IMG/VR virus record: IMGVR_UViG_3300029858_000359
Reading direction: 5' to 3' (one strand)
DNA from: a virus
Taxonomy: Duplodnaviria; Heunggongvirae; Uroviricota; Caudoviricetes
DNA length: 46,624 bases
The translations under genes were made by a program, and so were the position numbers. The notes below the pieces were generated by a model. That model worked only from the letters and a program-made list of their open reading frames with translations, made no database searches and was not told the origin of the DNA. Shown here one piece after another: positions 2,782 to 46,624 of the stretch (the first letter of the stretch is position 1; each line of letters begins with the position of its first letter).

Positions 2782-2994
2782 CTATTTATGATGTAATCCG
2801 GACATCAGTTCATGGACAAGATTATCTCTTTCATTGTGTTGCAACCGTAAATGCATAGCAAAAAGGTGAGCACTATCCTCATTCCTCTTCAAGCCATGCT
2901 GTTCAAGATACCCGAAAAAACGGCTTCTCTTATCCGCTATTTCCTGAGTCTGACGTGCAACATTTACCAAATTTTCTAGCGTTTTTCTTGGCAT
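2782..2994 (-). CDS. Hypothetical small protein, 70 aa
   Basis: ORF preceded by a strong AGGAGG ribosome-binding site (reverse complement of 2998-3003); no family recognised. Confidence 0.55.
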   Translation of the reverse strand: MPRKTLENLVNVARQTQEIADKRSRFFGYLEQHGLKRNEDSAHLFAMHLRLQHNERDNLVHELMSGLHHK

Positions 2995-3192
2995 ACTATT
3001 TCCTCCTGAAATTGTTGTAATTCACTAGGATATTCATTTTAATTTGTATCATTTAGTACCAAAACCGCTATCAATTAACAAAGCCATCGTTGTGGTTTAC
3101 CTTGCAGCCGTTTTTTGTCATTGACTCTATGTGAAAATAATGAATCATCATGAGATTGGCTCACACGTTCTTGAATTCGACGAGCTGTGTCT

Positions 3193-3747
3193 TTATTTAT
3201 CTCCTGCCGGAAACCTCTGATACAAAGTCGATACGCCAACATCATAGATAATCGCAACTTTCTGGCGCGGAACTCCTGATGCAATTAATCGTCCGGCTTG
3301 TGCCCATTGTTCTGGTGTAAGTTTGGGACGACGTCCACCAATTCGTCCCTGTGCGCGAGCAGCTTCCAGTCCAGCTTTTGTTCGTTCAACAATCAGTTCT
3401 CGTTCCATTTCAGCCAGGGCCCCCATCACATGAAAGAAAAAGCGCCCCATTGGGGTACTGGTATCAATTGAATCCGTCAGACTACGAAAGTTGATGCCTC
3501 GTTCGCGCAACTCCTCCACCAGCACGACAAGATGCCGCATACTGCGCCCCAGTCGGTCCAGTTTCCAGACCACCAGCGTATCACCTGCCGATAATGTCCT
3601 GAGCAGTTTTTTCAGTCCCGGCCTTTCGGACTTTGTACCGCTTATCTTGTCTTCAAAAATCAGCTCGCATCCTGCACAGTTCAGCGCATTACGTTGTAGA
3701 TCTGTGTTCTGGTCATTTGTTGACACACGTACATAGCCAATAAGCAT
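3193..3747 (-). CDS. Site-specific DNA invertase, serine recombinase of the Pin/Gin/Hin/Cin family
   Basis: N-terminus MLIGYVRVSTNDQNTDLQ with catalytic serine motif, C-terminal helix-turn-helix; start set at the second ATG, which has a GGGAGA ribosome-binding site; adjacent to the invertible tail-fibre segment. Confidence 0.9.
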   Translation of the reverse strand: MLIGYVRVSTNDQNTDLQRNALNCAGCELIFEDKISGTKSERPGLKKLLRTLSAGDTLVVWKLDRLGRSMRHLVVLVEELRERGINFRSLTDSIDTSTPMGRFFFHVMGALAEMERELIVERTKAGLEAARAQGRIGGRRPKLTPEQWAQAGRLIASGVPRQKVAIIYDVGVSTLYQRFPAGDK

Positions 3748-31033: not shown

Positions 31034-31494
31034 TCTTCACCTGATGCAGCCCGCTTACTGCTTTTCCGTAAACACCGTTCACGACGCGCCAGAAAATTGT
31101 TTCGTTCTGGCTGGGAGTGGCTTTCACGGAATGCCGCCATCCACACCGTTGCAGCACGACGGTATAAGCCCCTGGACTCCAGTTCTTCCGCCTGGCGGGT
31201 CAGGCACAAAATCACCCGCGGGTCGTTAGTGCCGACATAGAAATTGCGCACAGGTCTGGTTTCACGAACTGGTTGTGGTTCCGGATCCTGCGCTCTCTCA
31301 GTCAGGCGCGGGAAATGTCTGTGTGTATCTCCTTCACAACGGTGAGCCACACGCCCACTCTGACGTAACTTGCTTGCTGACTGCAGAACGCGCTGCCGTG
31401 AGTAACCTGCAAAAGCATCCGCAATGTCTCCGGAAGTACAGCCCGGATGGGCTTCAATGAATTTCTGAACGTCATTTAACAGACTCATGATCAC
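31000..31494 (-). CDS. Hypothetical phage early protein, 164 aa
   Basis: ORF downstream of the initiator gene; arginine-rich; no family recognised. Confidence 0.4.
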   Translation of the reverse strand: MIMSLLNDVQKFIEAHPGCTSGDIADAFAGYSRQRVLQSASKLRQSGRVAHRCEGDTHRHFPRLTERAQDPEPQPVRETRPVRNFYVGTNDPRVILCLTRQAEELESRGLYRRAATVWMAAFRESHSQPERNNFLARRERCLRKSSKRAASGEEWYLSGNYVGA

Positions 31495-32432
31495 CCCCTG
31501 AATCCTGCCGGGATCTGGCTGTAGTCCACATTGTCGTAACTGGCTTTGAAGTACGGGTCTTCGCGTTTTTCTGTGTACGTGCTGACGGACGGCGATAAGC
31601 GCAGGGAAAGCTCATCCCATTTTTCCCGCAGCTTCGACGGGCTGAGCACGTTACGGCACCAGAACGGATCGCGGCTGACGCGGCTGTACATCTCGCAGAT
31701 TTGTTTGTGAGTACGACCATCCTGCACACACATCAGGCGAATTTCGTTTGCCCAGGCTGTCCAGTTAGGTTCTTTGGGACGAACCACCTCGCCGTCACAT
31801 TCGGCGGCCTGCTCGTACAGGGCGATGATTTTTTTCCAAAGCCACTGTGCGCAGGTCAAATCATCCTGCGTCCCCCACTGGCGCTTTTTAGGGCTGAATA
31901 CAACCGCATCAGGATGGAGAGTTAAAAAATCCTGTCCATCCGTCTGCGTGTCCGGTTGCGAAGCGTCCGGACGAGAAGGTTTTTTATCTGACGGATCATG
32001 TTTTGATTTTACTGACGGATCCCCGCCAGATTCTGACGGGTGAAAACCCGCTTTTTTGCCAGATTTCGACGCATCAAATTTTGACGGGTCAGATTTTGAT
32101 GCGTCAGATTTTGACGGGTCAGAATCTGACAGTTGAGAAAATGCCGCTGCCTGAAGCTTCGCAACGTTAAGCTGATAAACATTCGACGCATTACGGTTAC
32201 CCTGGCGACGCGCCTTACGCGTTAACCAGCCTTCTGCTTCCAGCCGTGCGATAGCCGTTCTGACGGTACTCATCCCCGCGCCAATCTGGCGGGCAATGGT
32301 TTCAATTGATGGCCAGCACACACCTTCGTCATTACTGAAATCAGCCAGGCGGGCCATAATTGCCACGCTGGATAACTTCATGCCTGACGCAGCGCAACCA
32401 TCCCATACATAGCCGGTTAATTTAGTGCTCAT
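31491..32432 (-). CDS. Replication initiator, lambda O-like, with internal origin iterons
   Basis: N-terminal helix-turn-helix region; coding sequence contains about 8 tandem 15-bp repeats encoding a repetitive SDPSKSDASKSD linker. Confidence 0.7.
   Translation of the reverse strand: MSTKLTGYVWDGCAASGMKLSSVAIMARLADFSNDEGVCWPSIETIARQIGAGMSTVRTAIARLEAEGWLTRKARRQGNRNASNVYQLNVAKLQAAAFSQLSDSDPSKSDASKSDPSKFDASKSGKKAGFHPSESGGDPSVKSKHDPSDKKPSRPDASQPDTQTDGQDFLTLHPDAVVFSPKKRQWGTQDDLTCAQWLWKKIIALYEQAAECDGEVVRPKEPNWTAWANEIRLMCVQDGRTHKQICEMYSRVSRDPFWCRNVLSPSKLREKWDELSLRLSPSVSTYTEKREDPYFKASYDNVDYSQIPAGFRG
31985..32140. repeat. Origin-like iterons (about 15-bp tandem repeats, consensus near AGATTTTGACGGGTC)
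   Basis: TCTGACGGATC, AGATTCTGACGGGTG, AGATTTCGACGCATC, AAATTTTGACGGGTC, AGATTTTGATGCGTC, AGATTTTGACGGGTC, AGAATCTGACAGTTG in tandem. Confidence 0.7.
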
Positions 32433-33371: not shown

Positions 33372-33572
33372 CTAATCTTTCGGATAGATATCCGGTCTTA
33401 AGTCAGATTTCGTAATTGCACCTGACGTGCATTGTTCAAGTTTTTTAGCCAGCACAAAACTGGCTTTTTTATAGCCATTGAAAACCAGCCGTAAGTAGCC
33501 AGGTGTTGAGCCAACTTTTCCGGCCAACTCGTCCTGCTGTTCTTTGGTTAAAGAGTCCCAATACGCTTTCAT
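33372..33572 (-). CDS. Cro-like repressor (helix-turn-helix), 66 aa
   Basis: MKAYWDSLTKEQQDELAGKVGSTPGYLRLVFNGYKKASFVLAKKLEQCTSG; divergent from cI across the operator region; GGAGG ribosome-binding site. Confidence 0.7.
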   Translation of the reverse strand: MKAYWDSLTKEQQDELAGKVGSTPGYLRLVFNGYKKASFVLAKKLEQCTSGAITKSDLRPDIYPKD

Positions 33573-33575
33573 ACA

Positions 33576-33647
33576 ATATGTACCTCCGGTGTACATATTA
33601 CATGATTGAAATGAACCTTCAAGATACTTGTACCTTAACGGTACAAG
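33576..33647. promoter_or_regulatory. Right operator and promoter region between cro and cI, two palindromic operators
   Basis: ATATGTAC-CTCCGGT-GTACATAT at 33576-33598 and CTTGTACC-TTAAC-GGTACAAG at 33627-33647, sharing a TGTAC/GTACA core. Confidence 0.55.
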
Positions 33648-33662
33648 GGTTTTAATTTCGTT

Positions 33663-34337
33663 ATGAAAACAATCCATGACATCCGGCGGTCTAACGCCAG
33701 AAAACTGAGAGATGGTGTTGGCGGGAATTCTTCCTTTGCCACTATGATTGATCGCGAGCCAACCCAGACCAGCAGGTTTATGGGAGATGGTGCTACTAAA
33801 AATATCGGTGACAGCATGGCACGACACATCGAAAAATGTTTCGACCTGCCTGTCGGATGGCTCGATCAAGAACACCAGACAACGAACATCACAAAAAAAC
33901 CTGATGTTTCAATCACTAATAAACAAATCACATTAGTCCCTGTCATATCATGGGTACAGGCCGGAGCATGGAAAGAAGTTGGATATTCTGAGGTTGATTT
34001 GAGCACAGCAGAAACGTATCCCTGCCCTGTACCCTGTGGGGAAATGACTTATATCTTGCGGGTGATAGGTGATTCAATGATTGATGATTACCGCCCGGGA
34101 GACATGATTTTTGTCGATCCTGAAGTACCTGCCTGCCACGGTGACGACGTTATTGCATTGATGCACGATACAGGTGAAACCACCTTCAAAAGGTTGATAG
34201 AAGATGGGACACAGCGTTATCTCAAAGCGTTAAACCCAAACTGGCCTGAGCCTTACATTAAGATCAACGGTAATTGCTCTATAATTGGTACAGTGATTTT
34301 CTCAGGAAAACCAAGAAGATACAAAATCAAAGCCTAA
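33663..34337 (+). CDS. CI-type prophage repressor with LexA-like S24 autopeptidase domain
   Basis: C-terminal domain with GDSM catalytic-serine motif and downstream Lys; N-terminal helix-turn-helix-like region. Confidence 0.85.
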   Translation: MKTIHDIRRSNARKLRDGVGGNSSFATMIDREPTQTSRFMGDGATKNIGDSMARHIEKCFDLPVGWLDQEHQTTNITKKPDVSITNKQITLVPVISWVQAGAWKEVGYSEVDLSTAETYPCPVPCGEMTYILRVIGDSMIDDYRPGDMIFVDPEVPACHGDDVIALMHDTGETTFKRLIEDGTQRYLKALNPNWPEPYIKINGNCSIIGTVIFSGKPRRYKIKA

Positions 34338-34350
34338 TCAATGTTTATGA

Positions 34351-34373
34351 ACCTGCTTCGGCAGGTTTTTTTA
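34351..34373 (+). terminator. Rho-independent terminator after cI
   Basis: ACCTGCTTCGGCAGGT hairpin followed by TTTTTTT. Confidence 0.7.
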
Positions 34374-34376
34374 TAC

Positions 34377-34404
34377 TTGACAATGTACCCTTGAGATACA
34401 TAAT
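34377..34404 (+). promoter_or_regulatory. Putative PL-like early promoter with flanking operator half-sites
   Basis: TTGACA, 16-nt spacer, CATAAT; ATGTACCC repeats within and after it match the OR half-site core. Confidence 0.5.
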
Positions 34405-34493
34405 GTACCCAAGAGAAACAACTAACAGGTAGGACGCCCACGAAGTAGCCGCCTGGGGCATATGAAGTCCAGGATGATTCGTTAGCAACAAAA

Positions 34494-34526
34494 AAGCGCC
34501 CTATAGGACGCTTCGCTCTTTAACAA
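34494..34526 (+). promoter_or_regulatory. Putative antitermination element: hairpin followed by consensus boxA
   Basis: AAGCGCCCTATAGGACGCTT hairpin then CGCTCTTTAACAA, matching the rrn/nut boxA core GCTCTTTAACAA. Confidence 0.45.
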
Positions 34527-34744
34527 TCTGGAGATCCCCAAAACTTAACGGGATTTTGGCTTCGGTTCTGGCGGTGAAGGACGAGGTTTTAAGGGTATAT
34601 GATCCTCTTTCCATGTATATATAAATGCATTCATTTGGTCATCTCAATATAGAATCCATTATTAATTCATACTCATAAAGCCTGTGTGACTTTGGTGATG
34701 GTGGTCTGGGCTTTGGAGGTACATGGTTAGGGATTATGGGAATT

Positions 34745-35224
34745 CTATTTGTCATTATTACACCTTTTTGACCGAGGCAAATCTCCAGCAAACCATGCGA
34801 TAACGCTATGCATGAATGATATTTCTGACTCATCAACACGTCCCAGCGCAATACAGGTCCGTTTGAACGCAGCATCTTGTAAAGATCTCCATGGATTACT
34901 ATCAGCGTCTTGAACCTTTAAAAACCGAGTGCGTAGTTCGTCATCAGAAAGGGAGGAAAACTCAACAATCAACCTTTTATACTGTCGCATCTGTTCCTTT
35001 GATAAGCCAGCTTCCTGCCCAAATTGGTATACCAATTGAAGCACCGACAAAATAGCTACAGATGCGCCAAAAATAAACATATTGCTATATGGCGCAAAAA
35101 CAGAAAAGCCCAAGACAATGAGAACAAGAGTTATGCTCTTGTCTATCCGATTTAAAAGGGTGTAATTCATTTTCTCAAGAAAGAAAGAATAATGAATATC
35201 GAATGCTAGATCGTCTCGAGTCAT
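34745..35224 (-). CDS. Hypothetical inner-membrane protein, 159 aa, about two transmembrane helices
   Basis: AT-rich ORF convergent to cI with AAGGGA ribosome-binding site; hydrophobic helices ITLVLIVLGFSVFAPY and FIFGASVAILSVLQLVY. Confidence 0.55.
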   Translation of the reverse strand: MTRDDLAFDIHYSFFLEKMNYTLLNRIDKSITLVLIVLGFSVFAPYSNMFIFGASVAILSVLQLVYQFGQEAGLSKEQMRQYKRLIVEFSSLSDDELRTRFLKVQDADSNPWRSLQDAAFKRTCIALGRVDESEISFMHSVIAWFAGDLPRSKRCNNDK

Positions 35225-35863
35225 CTCTATTCCCTTACATTTCAGGTTTCGGCTCAGGGATCGGTGCTGGTCTCTGATTTACCGGAACATGAAATTTTTC
35301 ATTGCTATCTACGTACATATTTCCTTCCTACCTGTTGTTGGGATATCCAGATTATACCGAATCCTTGTTGTTGGGGAATAACCAGGTCCACCTCGCCTGA
35401 TGTGGCTAAAAGCAGGCACATAACAGCTAAGTATTTTCAACCAGAGAGAATCCTTAGCGTTGTGGTGAATGCGGCTCAGCGCACGCGGGTTAAGGTTAAG
35501 GCTGACAGTCGACCTTCTGTGGATACCCACCCGTCTGGTGTACAACCTTCGCCAGGCACCGGGAGGCACCCGGCACCACAACTTTATGCTGTGTGTTGTC
35601 TTGGCGGTACCAGCTTGTACCCTTGCTTCCGGCTGGTACCGTCCTTTTTACAAAACAGAGAAGAGCATCATCGGACGACGGGCTCATAACCCAATCCATC
35701 CGGGCGGCTGCCACCGCAGGTGTTCTTCTCTGTTTTGTGGAGAAACTAACCGCCCCTACGGGGGCATTTATGGAAATGTAATTGACTCAATAATCGCCGG
35801 ACGGTGAGGGCTTCCTTTTACCCGAATTCAGCGCGGTGCAGCGCATATAACGTGGAGAACAAA

Positions 35864-37012: not shown

Positions 37013-37231
37013 GTGGAGAAACATATGCTGAACCTCGATTGTGTTCCTATCTCAACTTATTGCAAAGAAACTGGCGAAACTCCTGAAGCAATAAACAAAC
37101 GTGTACAGCGCGGTGTTTGGCGTGAAGGTGTTCAGGTTTTAAAGGTTGAAGGCGTTAAGGAGAGGTGGATTGATCTTAGTGAGGTTGCAAAATGGGCCAG
37201 ACAAAACTGCTCAAACTACCGCGCGGCGTAA
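37013..37231 (+). CDS. Excisionase (Xis-like)
   Basis: 72-aa basic protein with GGAG ribosome-binding site, overlapping the start of the integrase gene. Confidence 0.65.
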   Translation: MEKHMLNLDCVPISTYCKETGETPEAINKRVQRGVWREGVQVLKVEGVKERWIDLSEVAKWARQNCSNYRAA

Positions 37232-38358
37232 CAATCAGGAAACACCGCCAGGGCGAAACGATCAATATAACTTTCACCTACAAAGGCGTTAAATGTCGTG
37301 AGCCTCTTTCCAATCTGGAAGTAACACCAAAGAACATTAAATACGCCGAGCGCACACTCGGCGAAATTCATAATAAGATCGAAAGGGGAACATTCATTTA
37401 TGCGGAATATTTTCCCCGTTCTGCTCGTTTGAAAATTTTTGGTAATGCTGCTGCAGGCAAAACGGTAAAAATGTACCTGGACGAATACCTTGAAATCTGC
37501 GAAACGAGAAAACTTTCACCATCTACGATTGGTGGTTATAAAAAATGCCGTAGTGCGTTAGCCTCACTCCACATTTGCCCTGCAAGTGAATTAACACCAG
37601 CAATCCTGAAAGCGTGGATTCAAAGCCAGAAAACGACCTTAAAAACAATTCGCAACCAGTTATCTTTCCTGCGGTCAGCACTTGATGAAGCCGTAACCGA
37701 TGGGGTACTTCAAATTAACCCCGTATCGTTGGTAACTGCTTCGCGCTACCAAAGTGATAAGTCAGAAGCAGAAAGCAGCTATGTGGTTGATCCGCTATCA
37801 CCAGCAGAAGTTGATGCATTACTAGCAGCAGCCGGAAACAAACAATGGGAAAATCTGTTCCGGTTCGCCATACATACAGGCCTGCGTAGTTCTGAATTAT
37901 GTGCCCTACGATGGCATGATATCGACTTTGTTGGAAAAACAGCCCATGTTCAGAGCGCAAGTGTTGTCGGAGTTATCAAAGGAACAAAGACAAAAGCCGG
38001 TACCCGTAAAGTTGAACTGACTGAAGAAGCAATGTTGGCGTTGATAAACCAGAAGCCATTTACATTCATGAAGGATGCTACTGTCTTTGAAGATCCAAAG
38101 ACCAATAAACCCTGGGCAAGTGCTGATGCAATTAGGAAAAAAGCATGGGTGCCAACATTGCGAAAAGCAGGTATTCGTTACAGAAACCCATATCAAACCA
38201 GGCATACATTCGCCACCAGACATATCAGCCGGGGAGCAAACCTGTTTTGGCTTGCAGCTCAAATGGGGCATAAAGGGCCTGAGATGCTTTTCAGGCACTA
38301 TGGCTCATATCTGAAGGAATATGATGGACAAACAAGCTTGAAGAAGATAACAATATAA
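37192..38358 (+). CDS. Tyrosine integrase of the prophage
   Basis: 388 aa; C-terminal catalytic region RHTFATRHISRGANLFWLAAQMGHKGPEMLFRHYGSY. Confidence 0.9.
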   Translation: MGQTKLLKLPRGVTIRKHRQGETINITFTYKGVKCREPLSNLEVTPKNIKYAERTLGEIHNKIERGTFIYAEYFPRSARLKIFGNAAAGKTVKMYLDEYLEICETRKLSPSTIGGYKKCRSALASLHICPASELTPAILKAWIQSQKTTLKTIRNQLSFLRSALDEAVTDGVLQINPVSLVTASRYQSDKSEAESSYVVDPLSPAEVDALLAAAGNKQWENLFRFAIHTGLRSSELCALRWHDIDFVGKTAHVQSASVVGVIKGTKTKAGTRKVELTEEAMLALINQKPFTFMKDATVFEDPKTNKPWASADAIRKKAWVPTLRKAGIRYRNPYQTRHTFATRHISRGANLFWLAAQMGHKGPEMLFRHYGSYLKEYDGQTSLKKITI

Positions 38359-38375
38359 TCCAAGCATGAAACTAT

Positions 38376-38400
38376 TGGCCACAATTTGTGGCCATTTTAC
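38376..38400 (+). terminator. Perfect 19-bp palindrome followed by T-run between int and the OLD-like gene (terminator or operator)
   Basis: TGGCCACAATTTGTGGCCA followed by TTTTAC. Confidence 0.45.
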
Positions 38401-38416
38401 GGAGCAAGATAGAAAC

Positions 38417-40150
38417 ATGGCAAATCAAATTACCAAACTAAAAAATATAAATGTTGTGAAGTTTCGCGGACTGAAAAATATAAACATCGAGTTTGGTTCT
38501 CGCCTAACTGTTATTTGTGGTAAAAATGGCACATCTAAATCCACAATTCTTGGCATTATCGCCCAAATATTTAGCTTTACAAAGGACTTTACCAAAAACC
38601 CTGAGACTGATTTAACACAATATAAAACATTAACAAATGGCAGCTTCAAGTCAGCTTTCAGCGAACATTTTAGGCTTTCAGAACAATTTGATGTTCCTGG
38701 TTCAATGGACGTCAAAATTAGTGTCTATGATGGTGCATCGAACAAACATCTTGAAAAACTAACATTAGGTTTATACAGCTACAGTGACAGAGATAAATCA
38801 AGGCCTGTAGTCAGGGGAAATGATTCAATACCGGAAAAAAACCAAAGTAGAAACGTTACTCATCCTGTTATTTTTTTAAGCTTAGCACGACTTCTTCCTA
38901 TTACATTAAGGACTGATTACTCAACACGGGATGTTCAGTACATCAATGAAAATTCTGATGAAATCAGAATGATGAGTAACCAACTCTTACTAAAAAACAA
39001 TGGAAGCTCAGTAACAGCAACAAAAGGTACTATCGATTCAATGGTTGTCCATGGTGACAATTATGATCACCAATCAGTATCTGTTGGTGAAGATAATGTT
39101 GGACAATTAATCCAAGCAATTTTTTCATTTAAAAGATTGAAGGAAACTTATTCTGATTATCATGGCGGAATATTGTTAATTGATGAAGCCGATGCAGGTC
39201 TTTTCCCTGCTGCACAGTTAGAGCTAATTAATATTCTAACTAAAGCAGCAAAACAATACGATCTGCAAATAATCATGACCTCGCACTCTCCATTAATAAT
39301 AGAGGATATCTATAATCGTTCAAAACAAGATAGTGATAGCTTTAAAACAATATATCTTACAGACACATATGGAGATATTAAAACAAAGAATAATCTTTCA
39401 TGGACAGATATCCACGCTGATTTACATGTTGAAACTGTAAAAATTAATGATGACATTTGTCTTCCAAAGGCAAATGTATATTTTGAAGACAAAGAAGGTT
39501 TCGACTTTTTCAAACAATTGATAACAGATCGAAAAATAAATAAAATATTAAATCCATTAGGGAATATAAATATTAGCTGCTCTGCCATGCTTGACTTAAT
39601 GGCAAGAAAAATACCAGAATTTACAGCTAAAAGCTTGATCGTCTTAGACGGTGATGTTGTTCACGACAATAGTGCTAATGCAAAAAAAGCCAAAAAAGAA
39701 AAAAACTTATGTTTGCTTCCAAGCACCTTACCTCCAGACCAAATGATTTTTGAGTTTTTATATAATTTACCACCTGATGATGCATATTGGGAAAATAAAA
39801 ATAAATTTACAAAAGCTGTTTTTATGAAAACAGCTAAAGACATAATTGCAACGCTAAAGATTGGTAACGCTCCGATTGATTTAAAAATCCTTATAGATAA
39901 TTATAAAAAAGTTAACAAAAACCATGGCGGGATAGTTAGAAAACTGTTTAAAGATTTTGCACATACGACTCAATTTCAGGCCCAAGTAAAAGGGCGAGTT
40001 AAAGATAACCCATATCGATATTGGGTCGAGAAAAATCCTGTGCAATCGGATAGCTTCAAGAATGAACTAATAAAGAGTCTTAAAGTTATTATGACAAGTG
40101 GACATGGTGTCGATTCTGCTACCATCTCATCATATCTGTCAGATAACTAA
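38417..40150 (+). CDS. OLD-family nuclease-like protein: N-terminal ABC/AAA-type ATPase plus C-terminal TOPRIM-like domain
   Basis: Walker A GKNGTSKST, Walker B ILLIDEADAG, TSHSP signature, C-terminal FEDKEG and LIVLDGDVVHD (Glu and DxD TOPRIM-like); start at MANQITK (ORF track start 38366 lacks a ribosome-binding site). Confidence 0.7.
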   Translation: MANQITKLKNINVVKFRGLKNINIEFGSRLTVICGKNGTSKSTILGIIAQIFSFTKDFTKNPETDLTQYKTLTNGSFKSAFSEHFRLSEQFDVPGSMDVKISVYDGASNKHLEKLTLGLYSYSDRDKSRPVVRGNDSIPEKNQSRNVTHPVIFLSLARLLPITLRTDYSTRDVQYINENSDEIRMMSNQLLLKNNGSSVTATKGTIDSMVVHGDNYDHQSVSVGEDNVGQLIQAIFSFKRLKETYSDYHGGILLIDEADAGLFPAAQLELINILTKAAKQYDLQIIMTSHSPLIIEDIYNRSKQDSDSFKTIYLTDTYGDIKTKNNLSWTDIHADLHVETVKINDDICLPKANVYFEDKEGFDFFKQLITDRKINKILNPLGNINISCSAMLDLMARKIPEFTAKSLIVLDGDVVHDNSANAKKAKKEKNLCLLPSTLPPDQMIFEFLYNLPPDDAYWENKNKFTKAVFMKTAKDIIATLKIGNAPIDLKILIDNYKKVNKNHGGIVRKLFKDFAHTTQFQAQVKGRVKDNPYRYWVEKNPVQSDSFKNELIKSLKVIMTSGHGVDSATISSYLSDN

Positions 40151-40157
40151 TTGATTA

Positions 40158-40196
40158 AAAAGGGCTTTATGTGATGGCCACAAAGCCCTTTTTTTG
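40158..40196 (+). terminator. Rho-independent terminator after the OLD-like gene
   Basis: AAAGGGCTTT-loop-AAAGCCCTTT followed by TTTTTT. Confidence 0.65.
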
Positions 40197-40229
40197 ATAT
40201 ACTTTAGATCTGACATTTAGAGGTATCAT

Positions 40230-41129
40230 ATGCGTTTTAACACCCCACTTCGCTATCCTGGCGGTAAAGGCAAGCTTGCAAATTTCATGCTTCGGCTTAT
40301 TGAAGAAAATAATCTTTCGCCTATACATTATGCCGAACCATATGCTGGGGGTGCTGGTTTAGCATTGAAACTGTTACATCTAAATGCAGCTGAAAAAATC
40401 ATCCTTAATGATATTAATATTTCTGTTTATGCTTTTTGGCACAGTGTATTAAATCATGCAGATCAATTATGTTCTTTAATTGAAAGAACTGAAGTTACAA
40501 TGGATGAATGGTTTAGGCAGAAAGATATAATTAATAATCCTAAAGACCATGATCTTTTAACAATTGGTTTCTCAACCTTTTTTCTCAATAGAACAAATCG
40601 TTCTGGAATATTAAAAGGTGGAGTAATTGGCGGTAAAAATCAAGAAGGGAAATGGAAGCTTGACGCTCGCTATAATAAGAGTGATTTGATTTCTCGAATC
40701 CATAAAATATCAGAAAATCGTCACAGAATAGATTTATATAACATGGATGCAATTGATTTCATTAAAAAAATAGTTATTCAATTGCCACAAAACTCATTAA
40801 CATATTTGGATCCACCTTATTACATAAAAGGTAAAGGTTTATATATCAACCATTATAATCATGATGATCATGTTAGGGTTGCAAAAGTCGTACAGAATAA
40901 TATTAAAACACCTTGGATTGTTTCTTACGATAACACTCCTGAGATCCAAGCTATGTATAAGACATCATCATTAGTATATGGAATAAACTACAGTGCTCAA
41001 GATCGGTACAAAGGATCTGAGGTAATGTTCTTCAGTGAACGATTGAAAATCTTTAAAACAGATGATCCAACTAAGGTAAAAGCGCCTGTATTTAAAAGAG
41101 GATGTGTTGACGACCACATCCAGACATAA
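40230..41129 (+). CDS. Dam-family (alpha-class) N6-adenine DNA methyltransferase
   Basis: Motifs RYPGGKGKL, EPYAGGAG (AdoMet binding) and DPPY (catalytic), order as in Dam; AGAGG ribosome-binding site. Confidence 0.8.
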   Translation: MRFNTPLRYPGGKGKLANFMLRLIEENNLSPIHYAEPYAGGAGLALKLLHLNAAEKIILNDINISVYAFWHSVLNHADQLCSLIERTEVTMDEWFRQKDIINNPKDHDLLTIGFSTFFLNRTNRSGILKGGVIGGKNQEGKWKLDARYNKSDLISRIHKISENRHRIDLYNMDAIDFIKKIVIQLPQNSLTYLDPPYYIKGKGLYINHYNHDDHVRVAKVVQNNIKTPWIVSYDNTPEIQAMYKTSSLVYGINYSAQDRYKGSEVMFFSERLKIFKTDDPTKVKAPVFKRGCVDDHIQT

Positions 41130-41201
41130 AAGGAGCCGCAAAAGATCCGCAGAATAAAATGGTTAGTATTAATCGTTTTATTTCAGCTAATTATAAAAAT
41201 A

Positions 41202-41234
41202 CGGACTCGGGTTCAACTCCCGCCAGCTCCACCA
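41202..41234. repeat. attR of the prophage and attL of the following P4-type island: copy of the ssrA 3' end
   Basis: CGGACTCGGGTTCAACTCCCGCCAGCTCCACCA, 32 of 33 identical to 1028-1060. Confidence 0.85.
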
Positions 41235-41399
41235 CTTTTTAGTTGTTTGAAGTTCAATGAAGTCTACTAAGCCCACACAGCACAAGCTCTGCGGGCTTTT
41301 TTACGTCTATTGTCGTCCAGTGAGAATTGCTGAGAACTACGAGTTATGGCACCCTGAATGGGACCCACTAAGAAGGGTCCAAAAACCGAGGGTCCCAAA

Positions 41400-42629
41400 A
41401 TGGCAAAAATCGCTAAGAAGCTCACTGACACTGAAATCAAAAGCACCAAGCCAGCCGATAAAGAAATCAACTTGTTTGACGGTGATGGTCTGATTCTACG
41501 AATCGCTCCTTTGGCGAAAGGAGGCAAGAAAAATTGGTATTTCAGGTATGCAGTACCAGTGAGCAAGAAAAGAACCAAAATGAGCCTTGGGACATATCCT
41601 CACCTTACCCTTGCAAGAGCCAGAGCCTTACGTGATGAATATCTCTCCTTTCTGGCAAATGGTGTTGATCCCCAAATCCATAACAACGATAAGGCGAAGG
41701 CATTAAAGAGTGCTACTGAGCACACTCTCCAAGCCGTAGCGCGGAAATGGTTAGATGAGAAGGTAAAGACATCAGGTATCTCACAAGACCATGCAGCAGA
41801 CATCTGGCGCAGCTTAGAGAGAAATGTCTTTCCCGGTCTGGGTAATGTCCCTATCAATGAGATCCGACCTAAGCTCTTAAAACAACACCTTGATCCTATT
41901 GAGCAACGAGGCGTATTGGAAACTCTACGCCGTATCATTTCACGTCTGAATGAAATCTTCCGGTGGGCAGCTACTGAAGAACTTATTGAGTTCAACCCGG
42001 CTGACAACCTTGGTCAAAGATTCAGTAAACCAAAAAAGCAAAATATGCCTGCCCTTCCCCCAAGCGAATTGCCAAGGTTTATGGAATCTTTGACGAATGC
42101 GTCAATCCGGTTGGAAACACGTATGCTAATTGAATGGCAATTGTTGACATGGGTTCGTCCGGGTGAAGCCGTTCGCGCAAGGTGGTCTGATATTGATACA
42201 ACCAACAGCATTTGGAACATTCCTGCTGATTTCATGAAAATGAAAAAGCTTCACAAAGTTCCTTTGAGTAAAGAAGCTTTGCGCATCCTTGAATTAATGA
42301 AATCAATAAGTGGGCATAGAGAATGGGTTTTCCCCAGCATAAAAGCGCCTCTTAATCATATGCATGAACAAACAGCCAACGCAGCTATCATCCGAATGGG
42401 GTTCGGAGGCGAGCTTGTAGCTCACGGTATGCGTTCTATTGCACGAACAGCGGCAGAGGAGTCTGGTAAATTCAGAGCTGAAGTTCTTGAGGCAGCGCTT
42501 GCCCACTCGAAAAAAGATGAAATTATCGCAGCATACAATCGTGCAGAATATCTGATAGAGCGACAGAGTTTGATGCAATGGTGGAGTGATTACGTTCAAG
42601 CTCAAAGATCAAATGCTCTGGTAGCCTAA
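41400..42629 (+). CDS. P4-type tyrosine integrase
   Basis: N-terminal arm-binding region LFDGDGLILRIAPLAKGGKKNWYFRY typical of P4/CP4-57 integrases; C-terminal catalytic region AHGMRSIARTAAEE...AALAHS; start taken at MAKIAKK. Confidence 0.85.
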   Translation: MAKIAKKLTDTEIKSTKPADKEINLFDGDGLILRIAPLAKGGKKNWYFRYAVPVSKKRTKMSLGTYPHLTLARARALRDEYLSFLANGVDPQIHNNDKAKALKSATEHTLQAVARKWLDEKVKTSGISQDHAADIWRSLERNVFPGLGNVPINEIRPKLLKQHLDPIEQRGVLETLRRIISRLNEIFRWAATEELIEFNPADNLGQRFSKPKKQNMPALPPSELPRFMESLTNASIRLETRMLIEWQLLTWVRPGEAVRARWSDIDTTNSIWNIPADFMKMKKLHKVPLSKEALRILELMKSISGHREWVFPSIKAPLNHMHEQTANAAIIRMGFGGELVAHGMRSIARTAAEESGKFRAEVLEAALAHSKKDEIIAAYNRAEYLIERQSLMQWWSDYVQAQRSNALVA

Positions 42630-42667
42630 GTATCATAATAGCTAATATAATCCTGAAGGTAAAGAAA

Positions 42668-43084
42668 ATGGAAACCCTATTCAAAGTTTTTGAAAAATTT
42701 AGTTCCAGACCACTTTTTTTTATTTTTTTCGGACTCTCACTTTGTGAATTTTTTCAGAAACAATCTGTTCTGATGAATCCATCAGCAGATAACATCGCGA
42801 AATTATTCGCAGCCATGATATTAGTTGTTTTTTTTACTTGGGGATTTGAATGGCTAATCTTCAAGTTCAATGTAAACCTTGAACCTCATGATCAAGGCGA
42901 TATTGGACCAACAATTGGAACGGCTACTTTAGCTGTATACTTAGTTTATGCCTTTCACTTTCTCAGTGAAAATCCTGAAGCATTAAATTTAAAGTTATTA
43001 ACTAACTCTGGCTTTATATACAGCACAACTCTATTATTATTCTCATTAGAATGCATGAAGCTTAGAAGACTTAAACAAAAATAA
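42668..43084 (+). CDS. Hypothetical polytopic membrane protein, 138 aa
   Basis: AT-rich ORF with GAAGG ribosome-binding site; several hydrophobic helices. Confidence 0.5.
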   Translation: METLFKVFEKFSSRPLFFIFFGLSLCEFFQKQSVLMNPSADNIAKLFAAMILVVFFTWGFEWLIFKFNVNLEPHDQGDIGPTIGTATLAVYLVYAFHFLSENPEALNLKLLTNSGFIYSTTLLLFSLECMKLRRLKQK

Positions 43085-43155
43085 ACAACATCATTGTGAT
43101 GATAAATATAAAATAGGCATGGCGAAAAAAAATCACCACGCCTAAAATATAATAA

Positions 43156-44922
43156 TTATGGTAGCATCATTGATACATAATCCACACCAATCCTTGAGCT
43201 ATACTGAGACGCTATAGCCTGATATCTTTCTGCATAACCAGTTCTCAGTTGAGATTTAAGTTTGAGTCGGACAGGAACATTTTGCACGTTGCCATCCATA
43301 TTACTTAAAAACACGGCAGAAATAATATTTTTTTCTTCGCCATCAACTGTTGTTCCATGATTCAACACCACCATATAATCAACAACAGGAAGCGTTTTAT
43401 CCCCTTCGAAAATAGAGAGATATTTTCTTTGATTTTTATGCATTACATATATATATTTCGAATGTTCAGCAAATGGCAATGCTTTACTCTGACTGGCGTT
43501 AAAAAGCTCCAGAACTTTAATGAGCCTGTGCGGACTTAATCTTACATGGTGAGGGTCGTTACCCTGAGTAGGAACCAAATCACATGCCGCAGATACACAT
43601 AAATACCATTTGTTCGACTCTGTATCAAAGAAAATAGTGCCAGTAGAAATATGACCATCTTCAAAATTCTTTGAAGACAAATTCATATTTAAAGCATGAT
43701 ACATTTCGTGATAAGTATCATTATTTGATGGCAGATCCATTTTTGAAGAGCAATATTGGAGCAATGCAGCAACTCCGCTGTTAGCGTATTCATTTGAATA
43801 GCTATCAAAAACACTTTTGATAAATTCATCCAGCGTATTATTATTTTTAAGTCTTTGATAAAGCTCTTCTGATAAATTACCAAATACAAAGTCAATATTT
43901 CTACATCTAATATCAGGCGAGTCTGATTTTAATATCTCATTTAACCACGCAGCTTGACCGTAATGATCGTTAGCCAAATGATTTACAAAAGATAAAGCCT
44001 CAGCTTCGATTGCATTCTGAATTTCAGATTTTATTAACTGATAATAAGATGGTTTCCATTCAATGAGAGAATCATTGAGAGTTTGCCAAATCCTATCTCC
44101 ATCGTTTTCATGATCATCTTGAACCTTATGAAATAGGGAGACAAAGATATTACCACATTGAATCCATTTTACTCCGCTTTCATCACCCCGAATGACATTG
44201 CCAGATGTGTTGCTAGAAATAATTGCATTTCTAGACACAGCATATTCTGCAATCATTTTTGCAATGAAGTTTTTATCCTTTTGATCCTCCAACACAGCAT
44301 CATCATGTATTAATCTTTTAATTCTTCTACAAGGCTTACTGTCTTTAATATAGGCTATTGTTTCATCTCTTGTGAGAGCTTTATTACCATTATCATTTAA
44401 GTTCGGTAATACAACGTCTTCCCAATAACTTTGGACATCTTCATTATCGTAGTCAATGATCAAGCTGTTGATATCCAGAGCACCTTTGAGAGTCGATGAT
44501 ATCTGCATCCAAACCGTTTCTAAATTCTCTCTAGTATATATTACAATCATATTTAAATGATCGGAGTCTTTCAAATCTTGTAATAGTTTAAGTGTTTTAT
44601 CAGGTGCATTATTATCAAGATGATAATCTACAATAATAAGATCTGATTTTCTAATCCGATCCACATCGAAATTAACAGAACCATTGTCAACATCACAAAT
44701 CATATTTTTAGATTGAAAAAAGCTCTCAAGAGTAGCGGCTCGTTTAGATGAGTCAATTTTGTTGTAGTCTAAATCAACTTCGTTATTCAACGCCCTGATT
44801 GATTCAGAATACGTCAGAAAATCGTCATCAATCATGACAACGGAACGAATTGCATTTTCGCAGAAAGTTTTCTGGACAAGAGAATTATAAATTGCCACTG
44901 TCATATTAGAACTCCACTCCAT
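43156..44922 (-). CDS. Receiver (REC)-like domain protein with about 430-aa C-terminal domain of unknown function
   Basis: N-terminal region VVMIDDD ... SDLIIVDYHLDNNAPDKTLKLLQDL ... NMIVIYT follows response-regulator receiver topology; no DNA-binding output recognised; start overlaps the stop of the upstream kinase-like gene. Confidence 0.6.
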   Translation of the reverse strand: MEWSSNMTVAIYNSLVQKTFCENAIRSVVMIDDDFLTYSESIRALNNEVDLDYNKIDSSKRAATLESFFQSKNMICDVDNGSVNFDVDRIRKSDLIIVDYHLDNNAPDKTLKLLQDLKDSDHLNMIVIYTRENLETVWMQISSTLKGALDINSLIIDYDNEDVQSYWEDVVLPNLNDNGNKALTRDETIAYIKDSKPCRRIKRLIHDDAVLEDQKDKNFIAKMIAEYAVSRNAIISSNTSGNVIRGDESGVKWIQCGNIFVSLFHKVQDDHENDGDRIWQTLNDSLIEWKPSYYQLIKSEIQNAIEAEALSFVNHLANDHYGQAAWLNEILKSDSPDIRCRNIDFVFGNLSEELYQRLKNNNTLDEFIKSVFDSYSNEYANSGVAALLQYCSSKMDLPSNNDTYHEMYHALNMNLSSKNFEDGHISTGTIFFDTESNKWYLCVSAACDLVPTQGNDPHHVRLSPHRLIKVLELFNASQSKALPFAEHSKYIYVMHKNQRKYLSIFEGDKTLPVVDYMVVLNHGTTVDGEEKNIISAVFLSNMDGNVQNVPVRLKLKSQLRTGYAERYQAIASQYSSRIGVDYVSMMLP

Positions 44923-46624
44923 TGAACTGGATCACAAAATTAGCGCCATCTTTTATTAAATAGTTATCGCCTTCATCAGGTTCTGAATACCATATTTTAT
45001 GATGTGCAACAGCAAGGTTTTCTCGACATAGATACAGACCTACCCCATGTCCATTTGCTCTTTTGCTATAAAATAGTTCAAATAGTCACGGGATATCATC
45101 GGTATCAATTGCCGGACCAGAATTTGCTATGATAACCAAAGAATTCACAAAACCAATCTTTATGAGCCTATTATTTGACAGACTGACCCAATACATTGCA
45201 TTGTTGATAATATTAGTAAAAACAGGATAGATCCTTGATGGTATATCTGTTATTGCGATTTGCTTAAACTCTTCACTAAATTCAATAGTTATTCGTTGCC
45301 GTTCGAAACGCTCCCCAAAGAACTTCAGGACATAATCCATGATATTTTTTCCAGTTATTCTCTGCCTGGATTGATAACCTGATATTTTCAAAGGTGATAA
45401 GAAACGTATTTGTTGAGTAAGCGATCTGTGAGCATTTAACGCCAATGAAAAACCAGGGTGTTCTTTTACAGAAGTAGGAAGAGAGTTTAGTCCTCTGGTT
45501 ACCATAGAATCCATTTCTTCAAGTTCATGAGATATTATCTCAACACTAATACCTAACTGTGCAAGCGCGTTTAAACTTTTAGCTTTTTCTTCAAAATATG
45601 AGCGTTCTTCTTCAGATAATGAGAATGCTGAATCTAAGTTTATACCTTCAAATAATCTATCGAGACCTTTTATTATTGATTGATATTTGAAAGTTAGGGT
45701 ATCAACTGACTCAACATATAAACTATCGAGCAAATTAAACACATTTTCAATTTGTGAATCATTATCTATTGAATCAACAACTGATATAGTTTTAGCATAA
45801 TAATCACTTCGATCAACCTTTATTTCATCGGCCCATTTTTTTAAAAGAGAATGTATCTTCTCCTCTATCGTGTTATTAAACTTAGTTAGTTTAGAATTAA
45901 TAATACCTTGATTTTTTTCAAGGTGATTTTTCGCTGACAATGAAGGCTCAAGTTTATTTAATTCAGAATCAAGTTTATTAATTGCTAACTTCATTTGTAG
46001 AATATACGCAGAGAACTCATTAAATTTATCTCTGTAGTCTCTATATTTCTCTTCATACATTCCAAGTTTTGGAGGTTTGATAGGCGTTTTAATTTCACTG
46101 CGCAACGCATCTAAGTTTGTAAGATCACTGTCTATAATTTTAAGATAGTTTAAATCTAACGAACCATCAGTTTTATCAAGCTTAGTTTTCAGCCTTTTAA
46201 CAGCCTCCAAGGAAGCATCAAGAACTGGTGTCTGATTCTTCAAAGCTTCTGAAAAACTTTTTTGTGTTGATTTTCGAGCTTGTTGTTGAGCAGATTTTCT
46301 TAACTCTTTTTCACGCTTAACTTGTTCTAAAAGCTCTTTACGGTCATCAGAACGTGAACCAAAAAATCTATCAGCAAGTTCAGTTAACAAATTAGATATA
46401 ATAGTTTTCAGTTCTCTTGCAGCCTGGTTTCTTATGAATCCCTCTCTCCCCGACTTATCTTTCAGCTCTTTATTACTGGATTGAGTAATTCCAATATAAC
46501 CAAAAATCCTTCTATTAGACCAATAATATCGCCCTGCATTCCATGAACGTCTTTCTTCTATCTGGAAGAAATCATTATCTACTCGACCATAAGGTAATAC
46601 TCTCAAGCTATCCCTAAAAATCAT
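44906..46624 (-). pseudogene. Histidine-kinase-like gene interrupted by an in-frame TGA (45086-45088); N-terminus beyond the window
   Basis: H-box-like SHELEEMDSM, N-box NIINNAMYW, G1 IANSGPAI, then in-frame TGA, then same-frame LFELFYSKRANGHGVGLYLCRENLAVAHH (G2 box) ending at the TAA at 44906. Confidence 0.55.

Follow-up and report, generated by a model that had tools for sequence, protein, structure and literature searches.

SLATT effectors are small helical-hairpin proteins that are believed to make the inner membrane permeable or to depolarise it, and the canonical members of this superfamily have a signal-generating partner (SMODS, SLOG, TIR or reverse transcriptase (RT)). SLATT proteins contain two to three transmembrane (TM) helices and are predicted to be pore-forming effectors or accessories of CBASS, RADAR, DRT3 and UG17 (PMC9226505). 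In the case of DRT10, defence requires the SLATT gene, the activation mechanism of which was stated as unknown (bioRxiv 10.64898/2026.04.29.721553). The region next to cI is in turn a known hotspot of defence genes expressed by the lysogen, such as rexAB and bstA (PMC8585504). Here we describe a locus from the IMG/VR virus record IMGVR_UViG_3300029858_000359 (Caudoviricetes), the whole of which (46,624 nucleotides (nt)) is called the window below and is an SfV/SfIV/PhiR29-like lambdoid prophage. The gene under study encodes a protein of 159 amino acids (aa) with two predicted TM segments. It is one cistron of an approximately 830-bp exchangeable prophage accessory operon on the minus strand (the cassette), which also contains three conserved, proline-rich small open reading frames (sORF-A, sORF-B and sORF-C). 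An earlier reading of the same DNA (the original prediction) had proposed the gene as a superinfection-exclusion or abortive-infection factor, possibly of the SieB or RexB type and coordinated with the repressor through an operator half-site.

Like the SLATT effectors (SLATT_1, SLATT_4 and SLATT_5; e.g., SLATT-5 of DRT10/UG17), the 159-aa protein is small, combines a two-TM hairpin with a predicted helical cytoplasmic extension and is encoded in mobile or defence-linked DNA; unlike in the SLATT systems, its gene is flanked by one to four proline-rich micro-ORFs and has no enzyme partner. With RexAB of lambda and BstA of BTP1 the cassette shares its position as a lysogeny-associated accessory locus beside a lambdoid repressor, and with RexB the membrane protein as presumed effector. 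Whereas rexAB and bstA are co-oriented with cI and use the cI promoter, the cassette is located beyond the cI terminator and the early-left promoter PL in reversed orientation, and it has neither sequence similarity to RexAB nor a RexA-like sensor. SieB of P22 and lambda, which is implicated in aborting superinfection, is likewise a small prophage membrane protein of the early-left region, but it is transcribed in the direction of PL and is not accompanied by proline-rich micro-ORFs.

Regarding the peptides, the closest described counterparts are the RAPP/RGPP and polyproline arrest peptides (ApdA, ApdP, SecM), which they resemble in being short, in carrying a C-terminal proline motif preceded by conserved residues and in lying upstream of a membrane-related gene. 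They differ from these in that RxPP is absent, several copies are located downstream of the gene and some contain only alternating P-x-P. Oncocin-type proline-rich antimicrobial peptides have the core PRPRPP. The peptides of the sORF-B type (21-24 aa) are similarly cationic with PKPRPP or PRPRPP cores; unlike the oncocin type, they would be synthesised from a phage operon within the bacterial cell and lack a secretion signal, and the peptides of the sORF-A type are acidic. The pairing of such micro-ORFs with a SLATT-like gene was not found in Pfam, PHROGs, PADLOC, NCBIfam or the literature searched; judged by these sources, the two-TM family, its peptides and their pairing are apparently undescribed, and the peptide component is apparently without precedent.

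Organization of the operon and conservation of its peptides

The minus-strand gene of 159 aa in AT-rich DNA, with a ribosome-binding site of its own, was recovered as originally predicted. The ORF starts with ATG, is conserved at full length and is preceded by a Shine-Dalgarno-like AAGGGA; the cassette has a G+C content of 0.40, lower than that of the window (0.48) and of the phage structural region (0.50-0.60). The operon setting and its three conserved proline-rich micro-ORFs had been overlooked. The order on the minus strand is sORF-A (27 aa), the 159-aa two-TM gene, sORF-B (38 aa), sORF-C (29 aa) and a terminator (coordinates and peptide sequences are given in Table 1), and none of the three sORFs is annotated in RefSeq. 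A strong Shine-Dalgarno sequence (AGGAAGGA) lies 5 nt upstream of sORF-A, the stop codon of which is 10 nt before the ATG of the main gene; in most loci this stop codon falls inside the main gene's Shine-Dalgarno sequence (TGAGGT), at a distance of 8 nt from the ATG. sORF-B begins with an ATG that overlaps the final codons of the 159-aa gene and comes after a Shine-Dalgarno-like AAAGGTG, the start having been set from peptides of the form MSKP/MTKP...IIPNHVPPKPRPPAPKG at the equivalent position in other loci. sORF-C begins 5 nt past the stop codon of sORF-B, and homologous downstream peptides are present in other loci. All three sORFs carry the proline-rich motif H-[VI]-P…[KR]P.P.P.

Conservation was assessed in 67 IMG/VR loci encoding relatives of the protein (45-100% identity), from which truncated loci were dropped and to which the window and four loci from phage records were added, resulting in 62 distinct loci. 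An sORF was counted as proline-rich if its first ATG gives 15-70 aa with at least five prolines within 12 residues, in a zone extending from -500 to +700 nt. A total of 136 such sORFs were found on the strand of the gene and none on the opposite strand. An upstream proline-rich sORF is present in 54 of the 62 loci, and one to three downstream ones are present in 54 of the 62. Their density is 1.37 per kb in the cassette zones versus 0.022 per kb in the other 361 kb of these loci. The upstream peptides share the motif [DE]Y[EF]E[KR]H[ML]P..[QK]RP.{1,2}PPKP followed by an acidic tail, and the downstream peptides are basic and share the motif P[IV].P[NF]H[VI]PP[KR]PRPP.P; no peptide yielded a match in Pfam. 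Among diverged copies of sORF-A, with only seven usable pairs, the differences at codon positions 1, 2 and 3 number 23, 13 and 45, respectively, and 34 of 68 changed codons are synonymous in the sORF-A frame versus 8 of 70 and 17 of 74 in the other two frames. The micro-ORFs are thus conserved, with selection of the type expected for translation.

Among the more distant relatives, the homologue in Fels-2 (35% identity) has MSDSDNFHVLPRPAPAPKPEPGQDKK directly upstream, and a peptide of the FH[VI]..[RK]PAP type lies upstream of 23-35%-identical homologues in Fels-2, Yersinia phage 42.18 and P2-like prophages of Erwinia and Salmonella. Providencia PSTNGR2lys and phage EKP1 have upstream proline-rich sORFs without this motif, and no proline-rich upstream peptide was found in the Mu-like context, where the homologue is 23% identical. 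In one case, a 180-aa protein of Pectobacterium aroidearum (P0022), the main protein is naturally fused in frame to a B-type peptide (…KMAKPPVDGHIPPRPRPPAPPKAQN); in its AlphaFold 2 (AF2) model the terminal RPPAPPKAQN has a predicted local distance difference test score (pLDDT) of 81 and the linker one of 49.

The annotation of two of these records may be noted. In the Fels-2 record (NC_010463; locus L002) both the homologue (2977-3435, plus strand) and the sORF approximately 90 nt upstream are unannotated, and the opposite-strand STM2733.1, probably spurious, is annotated over the DNA of the homologue. The record of Yersinia phage 42.18 annotates the opposite-strand vBYenM4218_008 over its homologue.

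Family assignment of the membrane protein

Homologues of the main protein comprise 78 matches in 90% clusters, which are 47-100% identical and distributed across the Enterobacterales. A profile search of a 50% library (1.84 billion representatives) yielded 252 representatives at E<=1e-3, almost all of them stand-alone proteins of 150-180 aa. The PHROGs family is phrog_6315, to which no function is assigned there. Regarding topology, for which about two TM helices had been predicted, hydropathy analysis gave two hydrophobic segments at residues ~30-45 and 49-66, separated by a loop of ~3 residues. The hairpin was modelled as helical by AF2 (pLDDT 78, and 84.5 for a homologue), with helices at residues 3-43, 50-87, 94-105, 113-127 and 137-145, and the remainder of the protein, some 90 residues, is predicted to be helical and cytoplasmic. 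A hairpin of two adjacent TM helices followed by a helical soluble extension is the architecture of the SLATT proteins.

Profile comparisons point in the same direction, consistently but below threshold. In NCBIfam, SLATT_4 was matched by 45 of 117 diverse members of the family (best E-value 2.2e-5), SLATT_1 by 12 and TIGR04402 by seven. The three highest-scoring NCBIfam models for the family consensus were SLATT_4 (4.9e-6, 26.5 bits), SLATT_1 and SLATT_5, with alignments spanning the hairpin and the next helix. Three homologues are labelled as SLATT in UniRef, and 9 of the top 33 matches of a Foldseek search against BFVD were SLATT-annotated proteins of giant viruses, all at E>=0.036 and none at E<=1e-3. 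The window protein itself had no SLATT match in Pfam or NCBIfam, and a tblastn search of plasmids with the family consensus returned matches to 'hypothetical protein' only, without a bridge to annotated SLATT genes. On balance, the main protein probably belongs to the SLATT superfamily as a divergent relative. The kinship to SieB or RexB suggested by the original prediction did not hold: there was no Pfam SieB/RexB match at E<=10 and no RexA-like gene was found, and co-transcription with cI as in the case of RexB is not present, the gene being in opposite orientation with a terminator and PL in between.

Placement in the early-left region and proposed function

The cassette is located on the strand opposite to cI and the PL transcript, in agreement with the original prediction, and is convergent with the S24/LexA-type repressor gene, which is named ymfK (LexA family) by PGAP in identical E. 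coli chromosomes. A near-consensus PL-like promoter, overlapped by two operator-like repeats that are related to the OR sites, fires toward the 3' end of the cassette, and phage Ayreon has an annotated promoter at the equivalent place. The element CGCTCTTTAACAA, a perfect match to the boxA consensus, is presumably a nutL-like antitermination signal on the PL transcript. It lies approximately 105 nt downstream of the PL-like promoter and is preceded on the plus strand by a hairpin, and the same hairpin, read on the minus strand and followed there by a T-run, is the terminator of the cassette. No N-like gene was identified, nor was a second boxA found for PR. After boxA, the plus strand contains the cassette (antisense), an STnc100-like region, yfdR (HD phosphohydrolase), small ORFs and int. 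The cassette is thus inserted in reverse orientation right at the beginning of the PL transcription unit.

Homologues were antisense to the flanking lytic genes in every context examined. In 49 of the 62 lambdoid loci the homologue is convergent with the same cI-type repressor family, and in most of the others it is convergent with other repressor-like genes. In P2-like phages it is found within the early lytic operon, encoded on the same strand as the C repressor and int; further sites are between late genes in a Mu-like phage and between antiterminator Q and holin in EKP1. The neighbours in the 62 lambdoid and seven distant loci were ordinary opposite-strand phage genes, and only the proline-rich sORFs share the strand of the gene. 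The terminator, the antisense orientation, the low G+C content (0.40), the variable cargo of the slot and the presence of a -10 hexamer TATAAT, with a weak or uncertain promoter, support the assignment of the main gene as a prophage accessory ('moron') gene of the cI-proximal early-left region that is presumably expressed in the lysogen. This promoter was not called in the promoter scan (the -35 being below 4/6), and in other loci the -10 position is retained but degenerate.

A possible control by cI had originally been linked to an operator-like half-site ATATGTAC in the upstream region (35313..35320, minus strand). This 8-mer occurs four times in the window, with 0.85 copies expected, and two of the copies form the OR palindrome, so that one extra copy is no more than chance gives. 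The copy at 35313..35320 lacks a partner half-site at a distance of 7 nt, shows no conservation across homologous loci and lies downstream of the only -10 candidate, and the ATG within it is the start codon of the conserved 27-aa sORF-A. Control through this half-site was therefore rejected on the grounds of its chance frequency, missing partner, lack of conservation and start-codon context, and the suggested coordination of the gene with the repressor by this route falls with it. As the cassette is antisense inside the PL unit, after the operators and boxA, repression of PL by cI would relieve antisense transcription; coordination with cI, if there is any, would thus proceed by PL repression rather than through an operator half-site. 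The operator set of this immunity type spans 33569-33647 and 34382-34420.

What remains of the exclusion or abortive-infection reading, once the SieB/RexB kinship and the operator are removed, is a moron in a cI-proximal defence slot that encodes a two-TM protein whose only family signal is SLATT. On this basis we tentatively regard the cassette as a lysogen-expressed abortive-infection or exclusion module with a SLATT-like effector, peptide regulators and PL read-through as off-switch, a plausible function that we hold with reserve. The steps that we infer, i.e., expression in the lysogen, permeabilisation of the membrane, a defence phenotype, a role of the peptides and interference by PL, would be connected as follows. 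In the lysogen, cI would hold PL off and permit low-level transcription of the cassette, and the membrane protein would reside in the inner membrane in an inert state, restrained or tuned by the proline-rich micro-proteins translated along with it; as antitoxin-like or trigger-sensing regulators, these would depend for their supply on ongoing host translation. A superinfecting phage would upset this balance, the membrane would be opened or disrupted, and the infection would be aborted or its establishment blocked. Upon induction of the prophage, antiterminated transcription from PL would run head-on and antisense through the whole cassette, silencing it by collision and antisense RNA and thereby protecting the phage's own lytic growth. 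Self-immunity by antisense PL transcription would differ from that by Esc for SieB, by excess RexB and by the aba element of BstA (PMC8585504).

A more specific version of this model is distinctly unlikely in our view: the proline-rich micro-proteins would gate a stand-alone SLATT-like pore, engaging the ribosome exit tunnel or a chaperone and reporting or enforcing the translation state of the host. The peptides may then act in cis, as arrest peptides do, or in trans like oncocin-type antimicrobial peptides (PKPRPP/PRPRPP). If this were true, the prophage would sense translational takeover by a superinfecting phage via peptides of 20-35 aa and not via a nucleotide second messenger.

Several observations weigh against a lysogen-expressed defence module with a SLATT-like effector. 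All SLATT matches were below the curated cut-offs (26.5 bits for the consensus versus 55, NF033632); the Pfam SLATT models gave only noise for 25 close and 117 distant members and the consensus (best SLATT_5, one member, E=0.034), and fold searches against solved structures (PDB) were uninformative. The cassette contains no SMODS, SLOG, TIR or RT partner, and PADLOC-DB v2 has no family matching the 159-aa protein at E<=1. Every PGAP-annotated copy of the main gene is named 'hypothetical', and no report was found in the literature on STM2734 and WP_000196297. Regarding expression, the cassette promoter consists of a -10 hexamer only, is weak and has an uncertain start site, and RNA structure in the 5' region of the cassette is not significant (z = -0.22). 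Regarding the peptides, the pLDDT of the proline-rich tail of P0022 gives no more than a hint of docking on the folded domain, and the sORFs could be cis-acting leaders instead of proteins.

This last alternative, in which the sORFs are ribosome-arrest or proline/EF-P-sensing attenuators rather than trans-acting proteins, is possible but rather unlikely. If ribosomes paused on the proline run near the end of sORF-A, 20-30 nt upstream of the main start, this would set the dose of the two-TM protein according to the translation state of the host. The spacing fits, with 8-10 nt between the end of sORF-A and the main ATG and, in most loci, the sORF-A stop codon inside the main Shine-Dalgarno sequence; the proline runs are near the C-terminus with ~15 conserved residues before them, as in arrest peptides, and many sORF copies contain PPP, APP or PPK. 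Small ORFs with a C-terminal RxPP upstream of diverse genes are, moreover, a documented regulatory class (PMC12992588, PMC10951233), but the strict RxPP by which the family is defined (PMC12992588) is absent from sORF-A, sORF-B and sORF-C, and sORF-A of the window and of Fels-2 lacks consecutive prolines altogether (PAPIPEPKP). One to three further peptides are encoded downstream of the gene, where they are unable to gate its initiation, and the leader RNA has no significant structure that could be remodelled.

Three further alternatives concern the membrane protein. It might block the entry of phage DNA without killing the cell, as a non-lethal superinfection-exclusion protein comparable to HK97 gp15, T4 Imm or P22 SieA. 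This role would suit a small protein of the inner membrane whose gene is a prophage moron oriented for expression in the lysogen, but with a sole family signal from SLATT, a class linked to cell suicide, some 90 residues predicted in the cytoplasm and a periplasmic loop of ~3 residues that offers little surface to an injecting phage, we consider it quite improbable; it would also leave the peptides unexplained. If instead the cassette were a toxin-antitoxin-like addiction module, labile proline-rich antitoxins and a stable membrane toxin would serve mainly to stabilise the prophage or the cassette itself and not for phage defence. The antitoxin-like small ORF does come first, close before the putative membrane toxin, and the cassette, with repeats on both sides, can be exchanged horizontally; strict antisense placement in at least five phage architectures nevertheless suits a lysogeny-specific function better, no known toxin-antitoxin family was matched, and addiction appears very improbable. 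The version of the original prediction, in which cI controls the promoter of a SieB/RexB-type exclusion gene through ATATGTAC, can point to the vicinity of cI and to the identity of the 8-mer with one half of the OR palindrome. It is contradicted by the lack of SieB/RexB similarity and by a half-site that is solitary, at chance frequency, downstream of the -10 hexamer and at the start of sORF-A, and can hardly be credited.

Cargo slot, distribution and implications

The cassette is bracketed by an inverted repeat of 15-20 nt (AATCTGGATATCCCC... / ...GGGGATATCCAGATT), which was also found at positions 3226 and 3791 of locus L001. Both arms are present in 42 of 64 distinct lambdoid loci, with eight stray matches in 430 kb, and are absent from P2-like and other non-lambdoid contexts. 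The arms co-vary in two loci (L018 and L057), and in a subgroup the inverted repeat is a different one, GTAACCCTC. Near the arms, homology to phages that carry other cargo appears to stop; the arms look like the boundary of a cargo-exchange slot and could reflect recombination sites, 5'-3' pairing of the mRNA or paired protein sites. Other cargo of the slot comprises a 163-aa coiled-coil/CxxC protein in PhiR29_1 and different ORFs in SfIV and SfV. The repeat was considered as a feature of the main gene and rejected, the same arms bracketing the other cargo in PhiR29_1.

The cassette was found in 52 of 5426 complete E. coli genomes (~1%), and 230 genomes match at least part of the 801-bp query. 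The cassette or homologues were also detected in Salmonella, Klebsiella, Enterobacter, Cronobacter, Pectobacterium and Erwinia and in phages of Yersinia and Providencia.

Table 1. Location of the cassette, its control elements and neighbouring features in the window
Feature	Position	Strand	Evidence or remark
OR palindrome, perfect, ATATGTAC-N7-GTACATAT	33576..33598		operator set of cI region
Second palindrome, CTTGTACC-N5-GGTACAAG	33627-33647		cI-cro intergenic region
cI-like repressor, 224 aa, YmfK/LexA-S24 type	33663..34337	+	Pfam Peptidase_S24 2.7e-26; phrog_4 transcriptional repressor
Intrinsic terminator of cI transcript	34349..34368	+	terminator scan; annotated terminator in SfV and Ayreon
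PL-like promoter, TTGACA-16-CATAAT	34377..34404	+	promoter scan; 11/12
Two operator-like tandem repeats, ATGTACC-N6-ATACA type	34382-34400, 34402-34420	+	repeat family D1, common to OR region
Intrinsic terminator of cassette, hairpin then T-run	34493..34514	minus	terminator scan, 9 pairs, tail TTTGTTGCTA; palindrome I20
boxA, perfect, CGCTCTTTAACAA	34514..34526	+	13/13 match; only exact copy in window
Inverted repeat, left arm, AATCTGGAGATCCCCAAAAC	34525..34544	.	repeat I3, 20 nt, 85% complementary
sORF-C, 29 aa	34545..34634	minus	MNAFIYTWKEDHIPLKPRPSPPEPKPKSR (ends KEDHIPLKPRPSPPEPKPKSR); kept in all window-type loci
sORF-B, 38 aa	34639..34755	minus	MTNRIPIIPNHVPPKPRPPSPKSHRLYEYELIMDSILR (includes IIPNHVPPKPRPPSPKSH); start assigned by homology
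Main gene, 159-aa two-TM inner-membrane protein	34745..35224	minus	ATG ORF; phrog_6315
sORF-A, 27 aa	35235..35318	minus	MYVDSNEKFHVPVNQRPAPIPEPKPEM; codon-position and synonymous-change bias support translation
Inverted repeat, right arm	35334-35353	minus	repeat I3; overlaps -10 TATAAT
Candidate cassette promoter	35351-35356	minus	perfect -10 TATAAT without good -35; overlaps right repeat arm
PtuA/AriA/GajA-like AAA ATPase, 594 aa	38366-40150		island
D12-class adenine methylase	40230-41129		island
Second tyrosine integrase	41358-42629		island
Large protein with Response_reg_2 domain	43156-44922	minus	island
Large protein with HEF_HK domain	45086-46624	minus	island

Some further features of the window lie outside the cassette. 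An Rfam match to the STnc100 sRNA at 35429-35652 (plus strand) is full-length and sub-threshold (40.4 bits versus a gathering score of 47, E=1.8e-6). Elsewhere, this region bears the annotation yfdP or that of a frameshifted pseudogene, and an unannotated stretch of Salmonella phage ST64B shares 78% identity with it. Rather than a protein gene, the region may represent a structured leader RNA of the early-left transcript; just downstream of it is a 25-nt inverted repeat (35650-35674 / 35714-35738). The gene of the replication protein (O-like, helix-turn-helix; 31491-32432, minus strand) encodes degenerate repeats of the D-[PA]-S-K-S/F type (SDSDPSKSDASKSDPSKFDASKS) in its linker, and long opposite-strand and alternative-frame ORFs mirror the same DNA (31491-32432). 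Directly beyond the prophage integrase (37192-38358), an AT-rich island (mostly 29-37% G+C) extends over 38366-46624; this might represent a defence island of its own or a satellite adjoining the prophage.

Should the model of a lysogen-expressed defence module with a SLATT-like effector and peptide regulators be true, the cassette would be a compact and widespread module, present in ~1% of complete E. coli genomes, in which a stand-alone SLATT-like effector is paired with translated proline-rich micro-proteins. Three to four unannotated, selected micro-ORFs per locus would be added to the phage gene catalogues. The defence cassette, antisense inside an antiterminated early transcript, would represent a clean example of self-targeting avoidance, and its enzyme-free composition would make the question of SLATT activation (bioRxiv 10.64898/2026.04.29.721553) directly testable.

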